NCBI GenBank assembly: GCA_040752575.1
Contig: JBFMGK010000011.1
Location: forward strand, 2,580 to 66,579
Direction of reading: 5' to 3'
From: Candidatus Bipolaricaulota bacterium
GTDB lineage: Bacteria; Bipolaricaulota; Bipolaricaulia; UBA7950; UBA9294
DNA length: 64,000 nucleotides
Part shown: positions 3,067 through 59,752 of the stretch, piece by piece
Position numbering within the stretch: the first letter of the stretch is position 1
Layout of the letters: each line of letters begins with the position of its first letter
Translations under genes and position numbers: made by a program
Notes under the pieces: model-generated
Databases searched by the model: none
What the model was told of the DNA's origin: nothing
Seen by the model: the letters and a program-made list of their open reading frames with translations, nothing else

Positions 3067-4407
3067 ATGTGTCGGAAGTTGGGAGCATGCATTGTGGTGT
3101 TGTTGATGTTCCTAGCACTCGCTGGCGTGGCCGCACTCGGCGCCGGGCGCTATGAGGCGATCGCGGGAGACTACCAGATCGACATCACGAACCTTGGGAT
3201 GCCGCTCATCTTCTACCTGCGGATTGACGCGGACGGGGCCTTCATGCTCGCCCCGAATACGGGTTTCGATCCCGTCGAGAGTCGCGGCGAGGGAGTGCTT
3301 GCCGAGAGTGGCGGCGTCTACATGATGATCTACAAGGAGCACACGTCCGACAATCCCAAGACGGCGACCTTCGTGCTCGACGGGCCGAACCTGGTGTTTC
3401 AATCGCGGCTTCCCTATGGCGCGAGCAACATCCTAAACAGCGCCGAGGATCCGGACGATCCGACGATTGTCTACCTCCTGACCGCGGACACGCTGGTGCT
3501 CGCGGAGTATTTCGGCACCTACGTCGGCTCCCACTCCACGCAGGCCATGGGGGCCACCGTCGAGTACGTGTACACGCTCGAGCTGAAGGCCGGGCTGCGC
3601 TATGCGTTCGTGAGCGAATTCGCCATGGGCGGCACCGACTACAGCTATGCCGAGAACGGTACCTGGAGTGTGGCCGACGGCAAGCTGACGCTTGATCCCG
3701 CCGACGAGGACCCCGTCGAGGGGACCATCAGCGCTGAAGGCGAGATCACCGTCGCGATCCGCCCGTCCGCTATGGCACCGATGAGGGCCGACCGCATTCT
3801 GCGCATCGCAACCCATGCCGAGGTGGCAGGCACCTACGTTGGCGAGAAGTCCTCGCCCATGTACACGGTGAAGTCGACGCTGGACCTGGACATGTTCGGC
3901 AACTACCACTACAGCGCCGATGTCGGAATGCCCGACAAGTACGAAGAGACGGGGGCGTACGATGTGGTCGACGGCACCGTCACCTTGGCCCCTGAAGGCG
4001 GGGCGGCGTACATGGCGATGTTAGCGAATCTGGTCGTGACGGGACGCTTCCGAATCATCGGCTCGATGCCGGCGACGGACCTCGTTATGTACAGCTCGAC
4101 GATTCAGGGAACGTTCGCCGGTACGGCGACAAACGAGGAGATCGAGTACACCGCTCGCCTCACGCTGAGCCCGGGTGGCACGTATGCGCTGCAGGTGACG
4201 GACGGCACGGAGCAAGTGATCGTCGACTCGGCGGGTAGCTTCGAGATGCGGCGCGGCATGACGCTCATGGTCGTCCTCGCCGGTATGGACCCGGCGCCGA
4301 CGTGTTCCGTCAGCGCCGAGGAGCTGAACCTGTCCATCGTGCTTCCGGGCGTCACCGTGACCTCGGGGATGGGCGGCGGTCTGGGCTTCACGCTCCGGAG
4401 AGAGTGA
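3067..4407 (+). CDS. Secreted protein with four lipocalin-like beta-rich repeats
   Basis: Signal peptide; repeated G-[TD]-[YF]-x starts (AGDYQ, FGTYVG, AGTYVG, QGTFAG); strong RBS. Confidence 0.75.
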   Translation: MCRKLGACIVVLLMFLALAGVAALGAGRYEAIAGDYQIDITNLGMPLIFYLRIDADGAFMLAPNTGFDPVESRGEGVLAESGGVYMMIYKEHTSDNPKTATFVLDGPNLVFQSRLPYGASNILNSAEDPDDPTIVYLLTADTLVLAEYFGTYVGSHSTQAMGATVEYVYTLELKAGLRYAFVSEFAMGGTDYSYAENGTWSVADGKLTLDPADEDPVEGTISAEGEITVAIRPSAMAPMRADRILRIATHAEVAGTYVGEKSSPMYTVKSTLDLDMFGNYHYSADVGMPDKYEETGAYDVVDGTVTLAPEGGAAYMAMLANLVVTGRFRIIGSMPATDLVMYSSTIQGTFAGTATNEEIEYTARLTLSPGGTYALQVTDGTEQVIVDSAGSFEMRRGMTLMVVLAGMDPAPTCSVSAEELNLSIVLPGVTVTSGMGGGLGFTLRRE

Positions 4408-13548: not shown

Positions 13549-13700
13549 GGGGTCAGATCTTCATTCTTGGTGTTCCTGCGGCTCCGTGATGAGTCTCAGG
13601 TGCCTCGGGCTCGGTCCTGCGTCACGACGGTGGGCGCGCGGCAAACCTTCCTCTTGGGCGAAGTCGCACTGCTGTCGGGTGGCGGGGGCGCGTCTTGCCT
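13549..13700 (+). repeat. Direct repeat copy 1 (152 bp), starting and ending in 26-bp GGGGTCA..TCTTG motifs
   Basis: 150/152 identical to 15382-15533. Confidence 0.95.
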
Positions 13701-15133: not shown

Positions 15134-15542
15134 GGAGTCAGAGTCGTTTCTTGCCCCTAGACGGCAGTGGGTCAAAACGAAGCTGGCGTTGACACCAGTG
15201 AGGTCGCGTGGTCAGATCTCAACTCTTTGCATCGCGCGGCACCTCGACAGGACGTCAAAGTGGCCGCGGGGTCAGATCTTCATTCTTGGTGTCTCTGCGG
15301 CTCCGTGATGAGTCTCAGGTGCCTCGGGCTCGGTCCTGCGTCACGACGGTGGGCGCGCGGCAAACCTTCCTCTTGGGCCACGGGGTCAGATCTTCATTCT
15401 TGGTGTTCCTGCGGCTCCGTGATGAGTCTCAGGTGCCTCGGGCTCGGTCCTGCGTCACGACGGTGGGCGCGCGGCAAACCTTCCTCTTGGGCGAAGTCGC
15501 ACTGCTGTCGGGTGGCGGGTTCGCGTCTTGCCTCTTGACGTT
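15134..15542 (+). repeat. Array of GGGGTCA-family motifs (about 15134, 15208, 15268, 15382, 15517) including repeat copies 2 (15268-15378) and 3 (15382-15533)
   Basis: Direct alignment; 114-bp tandem duplication; variable spacing 74/60/114/135 bp. Confidence 0.85.
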
Positions 15543-57054: not shown

Positions 57055-57144
57055 GCCGATGAGAGAACTTGGGTAGCCGTGGCAGAGTGGTAGTCATCGG
57101 CGCCGAACGGAACGTCAAGACGCAAGAGCTGACCCCGTCGCCCG
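57055..57144. repeat. Dispersed repeat copy B containing the 26-bp motif on the minus strand (57111-57136)
   Basis: Direct repeat of 55550-55642. Confidence 0.85.
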
Positions 57145-58564: not shown

Positions 58565-59518
58565 AGGGTCAGGTCTTCCTATCACGCATTCCTTCTTCTC
58601 CGTATCACACCTTCCTGTGCGCGCACGCGGCGGCTGATGGTCGAGTAGTGAATGCGAAGATGCGCGGCGATCTCCTGCTGGGTGTAGCGGTGTTCGAGGT
58701 ACGCGCGGGCAATCCCGGCAGCGTCATCGGGGTTGGAGACGATGGCGATGAGTGCAGGCCGCCCGGCGACAAGCTGATCCCGGGGGATCTCTGAGAAGGC
58801 CGTTCGCGGGGGCGTGTGCTCCTCGATGAACGCGTCGCTCCCCAGATAGACTTGCCCGCGCAGGTTCTCCCACACCGTGACCCCGCGGCCTTGTGATACG
58901 AACTTCCGGTACGCCTTCTGCGCTCTGGCCCTCGATGCGCCGAACTGGTCAAGGATCCAGTCGGTCGTTAGGAACTCGGGTGTGGCCTCGAAACCGGCCG
59001 TGGCGCGATAGCTTGACCATGGCCAGTCCCGCGCGGAGCGGACCATCCGAGCTCGAACCGGATTCAGGACCACGTAGCGGGCGAGCTCAAGGAGGTACGG
59101 ATCCCGCTCCACGAGGACTCCCTTGAAGCGCCCCTGGAAGACGTGGCCCGTTCTTCGGTGCCTGCGGTTGAACTCCTGGGTGTACACGCCATTCAGCTGT
59201 CGCATCCCGAGAGACAGGGTGGGCTCAAGCGTCTCGATCAGGAGGTGATATGTGGTTGGCGACGCTGCGCGTCGCTAGGGGCGAACTGCGTTCGCCTTGA
59301 CGTTCTGGCAATACGCATGGCACTGCCAAGTGAACCGTTCGACGACCTCCGTGAGCAGCTCGAGGAACATCTCTCGGTCGGGGTCGGTGAAGAAGATCTT
59401 CTCGCGCGCATTGCCGCGACAAGTCACATGGTAGACAGCTCCGGGGTACTCAATTCTCAGAGGACGAGCCATATGCCCAGCATAGCCCTTTCGGTGCTTG
59501 ATAGGAAGACCTGACCCT
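58565..59518 (-). mobile_element. RAYT (TnpA-REP, Y1 HUH) element bounded by perfect 20-bp inverted repeats
   Basis: AGGGTCAGGTCTTCCTATCA at 58565-58584 and its reverse complement at 59499-59518. Confidence 0.85.
58582..59472 (-). pseudogene. RAYT transposase with C-terminal HTH, interrupted at the HUH motif
   Basis: MARPLRIEYPGAVYHVTCRGN...CHAYC, in-frame TAG 59277-59275, YHLLIET..GMRQLNGVYTQEFNRRH.R.GHVFQGRFK...NPVRA...WPWSSY. Confidence 0.92.
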
Positions 59519-59549
59519 ACGCCCTGACCCTACGCCCTGACCCTACGCC
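59511..59549. repeat. Tandem repeat (CTGACCCTACGCC)x3
   Basis: Three exact 13-bp units overlapping the RAYT upstream inverted repeat. Confidence 0.95.
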
Positions 59550-59752
59550 CCGGGTCCCACTCAAGTCGGACAGTGAGGTCCTCGTCTCCGGCCGTGATCG
59601 GCACGAGTCGCATGGGGCACCTCCACTCCCTGGACGCGTTCGGACAGCCGGGTAGCACATCGACGGCACGGGCTGCTCGGCTGTTGCCAGGAGCATGACC
59701 CGCCGCCGCTGTGCGTCGAGCGTCGCGGGAGTCCGTGTACGAAGGCGCAACG

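Follow-up and report, generated by a model that had tools for sequence, protein, structure and literature searches.

A stretch of 64,000 nt from the genome of a Candidatus Bipolaricaulota bacterium (contig JBFMGK010000011.1, assembly GCA_040752575.1; hereafter the window) carries an interrupted TIRYT gene, that is a gene for a Y1/HUH transposase resembling the REP-associated tyrosine transposases (RAYTs; REP, repetitive extragenic palindromic sequence), on a TIRtron, a unit bounded by terminal inverted repeats (TIRs). In this gene 11 nt encoding the catalytic His-hydrophobic-His (HUH) motif are replaced by a 53-nt cassette which codes for nothing, contains two hairpins and brings in a stop codon. 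The cassette is present at the identical site in 15 distinct TIRYT copies, which are dispersed across the TIRYT tree. The explanation which we regard as probable is that a discrete noncoding two-hairpin mini-cassette repeatedly homes to TIRYT genes and inactivates them.

Replacement of the HUH codons

The minus strand from 58582 to 59472 forms a single frame of 297 codons with one internal stop codon and a helix-turn-helix (HTH) at its end, and the translation reads MARPLRIEYPGAVYHVTCRGNAREK...FTWQCHAYC QNVKANAVRP-stop-RRAASPTT YHLLIETLEPTLSLGMRQLNG...ARYVVLNPVRA.... Where the homologues have the five codons LMTNH or QMTNH between CHAYC and YHLL, this frame has 19. The net gain, 42 nt, preserves the frame, and in place of the His-hydrophobic-His motif the translation reads P-T-T-Y-H. 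A reading made earlier from the letters of the window alone (the sequence-only reading) had described this difference in codon number, the TAG, the change from NHYH to TTYH and two perfect 7-bp hairpins with 3-nt loops separated by CTAG, CTAG being followed by a hairpin on each strand. All of these observations hold in the minus-strand frame (Table 1). The same reading had spoken of an insertion and was right about the site and the net gain. Alignment to intact homologues, the check which it had proposed, defined the junctions and showed that 53 nt stand for 11 nt and that the N-H codons (AACCAC) survive within the cassette, displaced by one extra base. This base is C in most cassette copies and missing from three decayed ones.

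Two pairs of elements with and without the cassette give the junctions directly. The window element and its uninterrupted relative P0001 are about 94% identical at the nucleotide level from TIR to TIR, and their sole structural difference is the 53 nt (59251–59303) in the window against TGACGAACCAC in P0001. Contigs of three other metagenomes, aligned to the window, likewise skip the 53 nt and have the 11 letters GTGGTTCGTCA in their place. In the second pair, consisting of the cassette-bearing L016 and the uninterrupted P0024 (94% nucleotide identity), the junctions are identical to those of the first, and the two pairs are distant from each other (dS ~1.2–1.3). In both, TGCCAGA-TGACGAACCAC-TAY becomes TGCCAGA-ACGYCA, followed by a 40-nt core, AACCAC, one further base (N) and TAY. 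The cassette is a precise replacement of motif codons and not a clean insertion.

The nucleotide changes specific to the window element (n = 25, cassette columns excluded) are evenly spread and stay clear of the cassette by 23 nt on its upstream and 85 nt on its downstream side, which argues against a co-conversion tract beside it. An R-to-Q change 23 nt upstream does not belong to a continuous donor-like tract. Given this absence of clustering, templated repair would have been confined to the patch alone or would have used a near-identical sibling as donor.

Folded as single-stranded DNA (ssDNA), a 59-nt stretch at the cassette reaches –16.2 kcal/mol (z = –4.4; none of 200 shuffled sequences was as stable), and the uninterrupted target is unstructured at about –1 kcal/mol. 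A search of the cassette against Rfam returned sub-threshold noise only and no family at a meaningful score.

Table 1. Features of the interrupted TIRtron, in window coordinates
Feature	Position	Strand	Basis or remark
Whole TIRtron: TIRYT gene within 20-bp TIRs, mobile unit, 954 bp	58565..59518	-	exact inverted repeat AGGGTCAGGTCTTCCTATCA at either end
TIR at gene 3′ end, overlapping the stop codon region	58565..58584	+	fits TIRYT motif GGGGWSAS (PMC3733652, PMC6006769) except first G = A
C-terminal coding part: YHLLIET..., catalytic-Tyr helix (ARYVVLNPVRA), C-terminal HTH; open throughout	58582..59250	-	
Cassette, 53 nt in place of 11 nt (TGACGAACCAC; HUH-motif codons M-T-N-H)	59251..59303	-	alignment to uninterrupted P0001
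Cassette 3′ part: AACCAC (N-H codons) plus one extra base (A), N-H shifted +1 out of frame	59251..59257	-	
Conserved 40-nt core AGGCGAAC-GCA-GTTCGCC-CCTAG-CGACGC-GCA-GCGTCG-CC	59258..59297	-	coding strand
Hairpin 1, GCGACGC/GCGTCGC, GNA-type loop	59259..59275	-	perfect 7-bp stem, 3-nt loop
CTAG between the hairpins; coding-strand TAG at 59275–59277 is the in-frame stop	59275..59278	.	
Hairpin 2, GGCGAAC/GTTCGCC, GCA loop on the coding strand	59280..59296	-	perfect 7-bp stem, 3-nt loop
Cassette 5′ part, variable (coding strand ACGTCA)	59298..59303	-	
N-terminal coding part of TIRYT, MARPLRIEYPGAVYHVT to CHAYCQ, intact	59304..59472	-	
TIR at gene 5′ end	59499..59518	-	exact inverted repeat AGGGTCAGGTCTTCCTATCA
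Tandem (GGCGTAGGGTCAG)x3, 13-mer unit, continuing into the upstream TIR	59505..59552	-	

Recurrence of the cassette independent of host gene descent

Further copies were sought with sequence patterns in the 74 genomes of the taxonomic family, in all GTDB species representatives and in JGI metagenome contigs, and by protein-guided look-ups. Eight of the 15 copies come from eight of the 74 family genomes and seven from metagenome contigs. Every one lies between the CHAY and YH codons of a TIRYT gene, and the full two-hairpin cassette was found nowhere else; a search of viral contigs for it returned none. A DNA search among the relatives recovered the insert in further genomes of the genus at 93% identity, against only ~77% for the flanking gene. 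Four copies (window, L016, L075 and L076) are open but for one TAG. L075 and L076 form a second cassette subfamily, with CAAG for CCTAG, other loops, a net gain of 39 nt and the stop moved to GGA-TAG.

That the interruption is an assembly artefact or a chimeric join has a negligible probability. The locus lies in a metagenome-assembled genome (MAG) of 78 contigs; no read run had more than 25% of the locus words, and uninterrupted related elements were matched in contigs of other samples only. Against an artefact stand the 15 distinct copies, which come from assemblies and studies independent of one another and share both cassette and site, as well as one run with a contig piece across the cassette, in a GCAACGC variant.

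A FastTree phylogeny of 132 TIRYTs, calculated after masking of the HUH columns, does not group the cassette copies but disperses them. On an IQ-TREE phylogeny of 47 TIRYTs the cassette label requires seven changes for eight rows, at least five of which are forced by branches with SH-aLRT values of at least 95. Four cassette copies have well-supported sisters that are uninterrupted, namely the window (P0001/P0002), L016 (P0024), L075 (P0043) and L040 (P0021/23/27). A single cassette clade is rejected by the approximately unbiased (AU) test (delta lnL 548, p = 0.0005). L024 and L040 belong to different major clades; their 40-nt cores are identical and their whole 60-nt units are 95% identical, with flanks that are 72–77% identical. 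Therefore the cassette was gained or exchanged many times, and this happened independently of the descent of the host gene.

The same data bear on the possibility of a single ancient insertion which was inherited vertically, the cassette being kept unchanged by selection because the interrupted gene or its hairpins benefit the host or the element. The core is far more conserved than the flanks, a stem change has been compensated, and the similarity of the 5′ 13-mer partly tracks the kinship of the host genes, the window and L016 sharing TGCCAGAACGYCA. We nevertheless hold such an origin to be very improbable: apart from the rejected monophyly and the uninterrupted sister of each of the four well-supported copies, the window element is ~94% identical to the uninterrupted P0001 and only ~75% to the cassette-bearing L016, and most copies are decaying.

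Conserved hairpin structure

Among the 15 copies the mean pairwise difference is 0.03–0.045 in the stems, 0.36 in the loop of hairpin 1 and 0.49 in the 5′ 13-mer, which consists of the host-like TGCCAGA and six variable nucleotides (ACGTCA in the window). The core has a mean pairwise identity of 0.93 (14 copies) against 0.62–0.69 for the 120-nt flanks, a conservation that is inflated because the search patterns fix part of the core. One stem pair of hairpin 1 is compensatory, being G:C in the window and L016 and A:T in the 13 others. We infer that the conserved trait is a nucleic-acid hairpin structure, CTAG-tagged and with GNA triloops, of the type that Y1 enzymes recognise in ssDNA.

Inactivation and decay of the interrupted gene

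The in-frame TAG together with the displacement of the N-H codons precludes any HUH-competent protein. TAG is an ordinary stop codon in this genome, where it terminates 940 long frames; the genome has no tRNA with a CUA anticodon, and no PylS scored above the cut-off. As an HUH enzyme the gene must therefore be regarded as dead. The sequence-only reading had proposed that a RAYT-like Y1 transposase is inactivated exactly at its HUH motif by a two-hairpin insert, and our analysis bears this out.

On these grounds decoding of the TAG by pyrrolysine or by a suppressor was ruled out. Ribosomal hopping and a deletion of any length that restores H-U-H were rejected as well; they are impossible with AACCAC +1 out of frame relative to TATCAC, and no bypass pair of take-off and landing codons is consistent across the copies.

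These results leave a very small chance that the interrupted gene is still functional, the cassette being bypassed, read through, decoded or excised, or the two halves of the protein inhibiting transposition. The frame that stays open but for one TAG in four copies, the in-frame gains in both subfamilies and an omega of ~0.22 rather than 1 on the window branch would agree with a function. Y1 enzymes such as the TnpA of IS608 work as dimers, and for this reason a catalytically dead partner could conceivably be dominant-negative. Besides the decoding, hopping and deletion results, the decay of most copies and the lack of a good ribosome-binding site before the internal ATG speak against a function, and the low omega is explained by a recent insertion.

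The sequence changes are consistent with such a recent event. dN/dS is ~0.11 in deep comparisons and 0.22–0.23 in two close pairs (window against P0001, 0.23). When amino-acid changes were polarised with four outgroups, ten fell on the window branch and three on the P0001 branch; of the 25 nucleotide changes that set the window element apart, about 10 are nonsynonymous (omega ~0.22). This fits a recent inactivation of a gene that had been under selection over most of its branch. Truncations, frameshifts or further stop codons mark most of the other cassette copies, and the usual fate of a cassette-bearing copy is decay.

Relation to REP sequences

The sequence-only reading had compared the insert with a REP doublet and had suggested that the transposase was inactivated by its own substrate. 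The genome-wide count of the hairpins, which it had named as a check, does not support this: in exact and short-word searches of the 2.16-Mb genome hairpin 1, hairpin 2 and the whole insert are each present once. Hairpins tagged with CTAG or GTAG are not enriched there either, 1.1% of CTAG and 1.3% of GTAG sites being followed by a hairpin against 0.9–1.0% for control tetranucleotides. With unique hairpins and no CTAG-tagged hairpin family, an origin from the transposase's own REP substrate is unsupported for this genome. Classification of the gene as a REP-associated RAYT was rejected, its flanks being 20-bp TIRs and not abundant REP hairpins. Nor is the insert a REPIN, because its two hairpins (GCGACGC... 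and GGCGAAC...) are different sequences and not inverted copies. We also looked at the proposal that the insert carries CTTGACGTTC as the 3′ part of a 26-bp motif. The 10-mer is indeed present; it is an accident of the junction, has 15 unrelated occurrences in the genome and is absent from the other cassettes. The 26-bp motif itself is the inverted-repeat end of another TIRtron subfamily.

The tag CTAG is common to both hairpins and kept in 13 of the 15 copies, with CAAG in the second subfamily; the described variants of the GTAG tag retain the first G. Among the 74 family genomes hairpin 2 occurs only inside TIRYT cassettes. Hairpin 1, in its GCAACGCGNAGCGTTGC form (GCAACGCG(N)AGCGTTGC), is found outside TIRYT genes too, with two to nine copies per genome in a sister genus and two in one congener. 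There it always follows a different, variable hairpin at a distance of 3–5 nt, so that the two-part build of the cassette is repeated. Stop-to-stop frames are uninformative on the coding status of these repeats because the DNA is GC-rich. The apex of hairpin 1 is GCGNAGC, reportedly a classic and very stable DNA mini-hairpin (Hirao and colleagues, 1990s). The dispersed family and the GCGNAGC apex support an origin of the cassette from a REP-like ssDNA element, which is possible, and not its being a substrate of this transposase.

In the sister genus the constant hairpin GCAACGCGAAGCGTTGCC was seen as a low-copy dispersed repeat directly after a variable hairpin at L079 (G083:C23:188307-188496) and L082 (G080:C65). 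A tRNA gene is flanked on both sides by GCAACGCGAAGCGTTGCC repeats, and a palindrome cluster holds three of them in a space of 350 nt.

Possible routes of cassette transfer

If the cassette homes as we think probable, it would be copied as a short patch from a TIRtron that bears it into one that is uninterrupted. The strongly conserved flanks that encode the motifs would serve as anchors, CAYGCNTAY to the left and TAYCAYCTN...ATCGAGAC to the right. The copying might happen by homing-like templated repair or by annealing of ssDNA transposition intermediates, which would be the natural donors; alternatively, a Y1 enzyme might swap the cassette in as ssDNA. After insertion the dead copy would decay. 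The cassette shares with homing elements its presence at one site of the host gene and a distribution incongruent with the host phylogeny. Splicing and an encoded endonuclease, the other marks of such elements, were not found: with its 53 nt the cassette contains no open reading frame (ORF), and no deletion restores the HUH motif.

Several points weigh against repeated homing. The analysis brought to light neither an enzyme nor a signal that would drive the transfer, and the conserved anchors (12–20 nt) are imperfect between clades and short for RecA-type recombination. The tree is unrooted, so that gain cannot be separated from loss. Most copies were found with patterns fixing part of the core, only L040, L075 and L076 being independent of them; the core of these three is 80–100% identical, L075 and L076 being more divergent (80–90%). 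A donor copy was not found in this MAG, which is 94.7% complete and in which repeats are possibly collapsed. The locus itself is known from the assembly of a 78-contig, 2.16-Mb MAG, to which contigs from other samples only were aligned. Finally, the in-frame gain in both subfamilies (+42 and +39) and the four copies that are open but for one TAG leave a little room for an expressed product under selection.

Instead of a copied patch, a Y1/HUH enzyme, either a TIRYT or another RAYT, might recognise the CTAG-tagged ssDNA hairpins, cut at two fixed points and ligate the cassette in place with no need for general recombination, which would amount to genuine site-specific transposition. We consider this exchange rather unlikely, and the evidence is divided. 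Identical junctions in independent events, the lack of co-converted flanking polymorphism and the transfer between clades with flanks of 72–77% identity all suit it, as do the GNA triloops, the CTAG tag similar to the GTAG of REPs, the association of dispersed hairpin 1 with a preceding hairpin and the analogous cassettes at two other fixed sites (see below). The known chemistry of IS200/IS605 and REP elements, however, inserts beside the target and does not remove 11–18 nt; the two junctions show no cleavage motif in common, and no source pool of full cassettes exists outside the gene. The left boundary, moreover, apparently depends on the subfamily (TGCCAGA kept versus GCCGCG), which is better explained by conversion tracts of variable length.

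Cassettes at other sites of TIRYT genes

Other double-hairpin inserts, with TAG adjoining a hairpin, occur at two further fixed sites of TIRYT genes. At the first of these (site 1) they replace the AVYHVT strand, both in this genome (C73, C50) and in L018, L019, L027, L029 and L040, and the first hairpin shows strong covariation. The TIRYT gene at C73:55304-56250, outside the window, is open except for an insert of ~80 nt with two hairpins in place of the AVYHVT codons near its N-terminus, and an insert of this kind (hairpin-CTAG-hairpin) is also seen in a remnant at C50 ~3390–3440. At site 3 the insert TGGCCGCTC...GAGCGGCTAG... directly follows the QGR codons in L017 (G056:C115, ~1180–1215) and L018 (G054:C117). 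Some dead TIRYT copies contain two or three cassette types, and all three cassette sites encode the most conserved motifs of the TIRYT.

A wider generalisation can be offered only tentatively, namely that tiny CTAG-tagged double-hairpin cassettes home as ssDNA handled by Y1/HUH enzymes to the motif-coding DNA of TIRYT or RAYT-like genes, where they would act as parasites or as off-switches. The combined statement that this holds at all three sites (the beta-1 strand and the HUH and QGRF motifs), with a few codons replaced and the gene silenced each time, is likewise possible but doubtful.

The host gene and its mobile unit

The TIRYT/TIRtron group (Di Nocera et al. 2013, PMC3733652) corresponds to subclass 2.1 TnpA-REP of Quentin et al. 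(2018, PMC6006769) and is defined by TIRs with GGGGWSAS, a C-terminal HTH (Bac_DnaA_C, HTH_23 or HTH_28) and the absence of a REP family (PMC3733652, PMC6006769). The gene in the window agrees with this description in being a RAYT-like Y1 protein of ~282 residues in its uninterrupted form, with the C-terminal HTH and the GGGGWSAS repeats, present in several copies per genome and without a REP family; it differs in that its HUH motif has been lost to the cassette, an interruption which is described in neither paper (PMC3733652, PMC6006769). The HTH is matched by HTH_23 at E = 3e-5 (24 bits, borderline against a cut-off of 24.6) and by HTH_28 at E = 4e-4 (residues 253–288), and the catalytic tyrosine helix LARYVVLNPVRA downstream of the cassette is in frame and conserved.

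The damage is also visible at the level of domain searches. Read through with the cassette, the window protein has no match to PF01797 (Y1_Tnp) at E < 0.01; when, for this search only, the cassette codons were exchanged for the LMTNH of the family, the match returned with E = 6.9e-12. The uninterrupted P0001 (282 aa, protein 92% identical) has the PF01797 domain and reads CHAYCQMTNHFHLL. The intact paralogue C46 matches PF01797 as well, and scores 91 bits with NF047646 (REP-associated tyrosine transposase; cut-off 80). The ORFs called in the window are misleading, since that at 59275–59472 extends into the cassette and ends at its TAG and that at 58582–59205 begins at an internal methionine.

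The DNA similarity that the element shares with P0001 and with contigs from other metagenomes (~94% identity) breaks off exactly at the TIRs, and the unit of ~954 bp is therefore mobile. Its TIRs are AGGGTCAGGTCTTCCTATCA at both ends, those of the paralogues are GGGGTCAGATCTTC, and terminal repeats bearing GGGGWSAS read GGGGTCAG or AGGGTCAG here. The GGCGTAGGGTCAG tandem at the upstream TIR recurs with two units at the same position upstream of the C46 copy and of L017, and suggests end duplication during transposition.

TIRYTs are common in this family of the Bipolaricaulota, 62 of its 74 genomes having copies. This genome has, besides the interrupted copy, the intact C46, C73 with its N-terminal insert, two decayed copies on C27 and the C50 remnant. 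One of the two C27 copies, at C27:33769-34490, has no cassette; exactly at its HUH codons two frameshifts compensate each other (CLADLPDDRPLPLL for CHAYCQMTNHYHLL). Close relatives P0021–P0032 form a subgroup of ~375 aa with an additional C-terminal MarR/LexA-like winged-helix region. In L012 (G054:C117) a gene pair resembling MazE/AbrB and MazF/PemK, at ~1960–2350, directly follows a heavily decayed TIRtron on its downstream side.

Solo inverted-repeat ends are dispersed in the window. Three near-identical repeats of ~90 nt or more without a transposase gene (13550–13640, 15269–15360 and 15383–15470, plus strand) each start with a solo TIRtron end (GGGTCAGATCTTCATTCTTGGTGT...). At ~57105–57135 on the minus strand there is a solo TIR-like sequence, GGGGTCAGCTCTTGCGTCTTGACGTTCCG, near-identical to the left end of the C73 TIRtron, which is the 26-bp motif mentioned above. 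The TTGACG inside it is a possible outward –35 box upstream of the neighbouring gene.

Comparison with known systems and implications

To sum up, the host gene belongs to the known TIRYT group, and the cassette resembles intragenic REP dimers and Rickettsia palindromic elements (RPEs) in its form, and is distributed like homing introns and inteins. With the REPs, the bacterial interspersed mosaic elements (BIMEs) and the REPINs that accompany RAYTs it has in common the short GC-rich hairpins, a tetranucleotide tag at the foot, two units set head to head and, in the sister genus, a hairpin 1 that is a dispersed repeat. REP dimers also occur in frame inside genes (PMC3733652). In contrast to these elements the cassette is tagged with CTAG and not GTAG, combines unrelated hairpins, has one copy in the genome, bears a stop and is confined to one kind of site inside the transposase gene. 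RPEs are small in-frame palindromic inserts in coding regions as well, but they are translated and free of stops.

Inteins and group I introns with homing endonucleases likewise occupy the codons of catalytic motifs, spread against the host phylogeny and have precise junctions. The cassette, however, has only 53 nt, codes for nothing and is excised from neither RNA nor protein, so that it kills its host gene, which is itself a gene of a mobile element. Miniature derivatives of IS200/IS605 (palindrome-associated transposable elements, PATEs) and miniature inverted-repeat transposable elements (MITEs) are similar in their minimal build of two hairpins with short 5′ and 3′ extensions and in being plausibly handled by Y1 enzymes as ssDNA, but they insert beside a short target without replacing it and are found dispersed at many loci. 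Bypass elements (T4 gene 60 and the byps of yeast mitochondria) are again small in-frame palindromic inserts, in gene 60 even with a stop codon after a hairpin, but they have matched take-off and landing codons and restore the protein, and neither is true of the cassette. Unlike all the systems compared, the cassette codes for nothing, stays in place, bears a stop and is confined to codons of the catalytic motif of a transposase. A search for interrupted RAYT or TIRYT genes in the literature available to us found no description of such a case.

To our knowledge, RAYTs and TIRYTs are among the least understood HUH enzymes, and we know of no account of how their activity is restrained. Cassettes at the catalytic and at two other conserved motifs offer a concrete and testable case of a natural switch-off of transposases. 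The cassette, its uninterrupted target and the hairpin 1 repeats are moreover defined DNA substrates for finding out what TIRYTs bind and cut. For genome annotation it is relevant that gene callers will split such genes into two ORFs or label them hypothetical proteins; the cassette provides a simple marker of dead copies. If the wider, tentative generalisation to three sites is true, it would reveal transposase self-limitation or hyperparasitism of a form not described before, in which the dead copies perhaps act as dominant-negative inhibitors.

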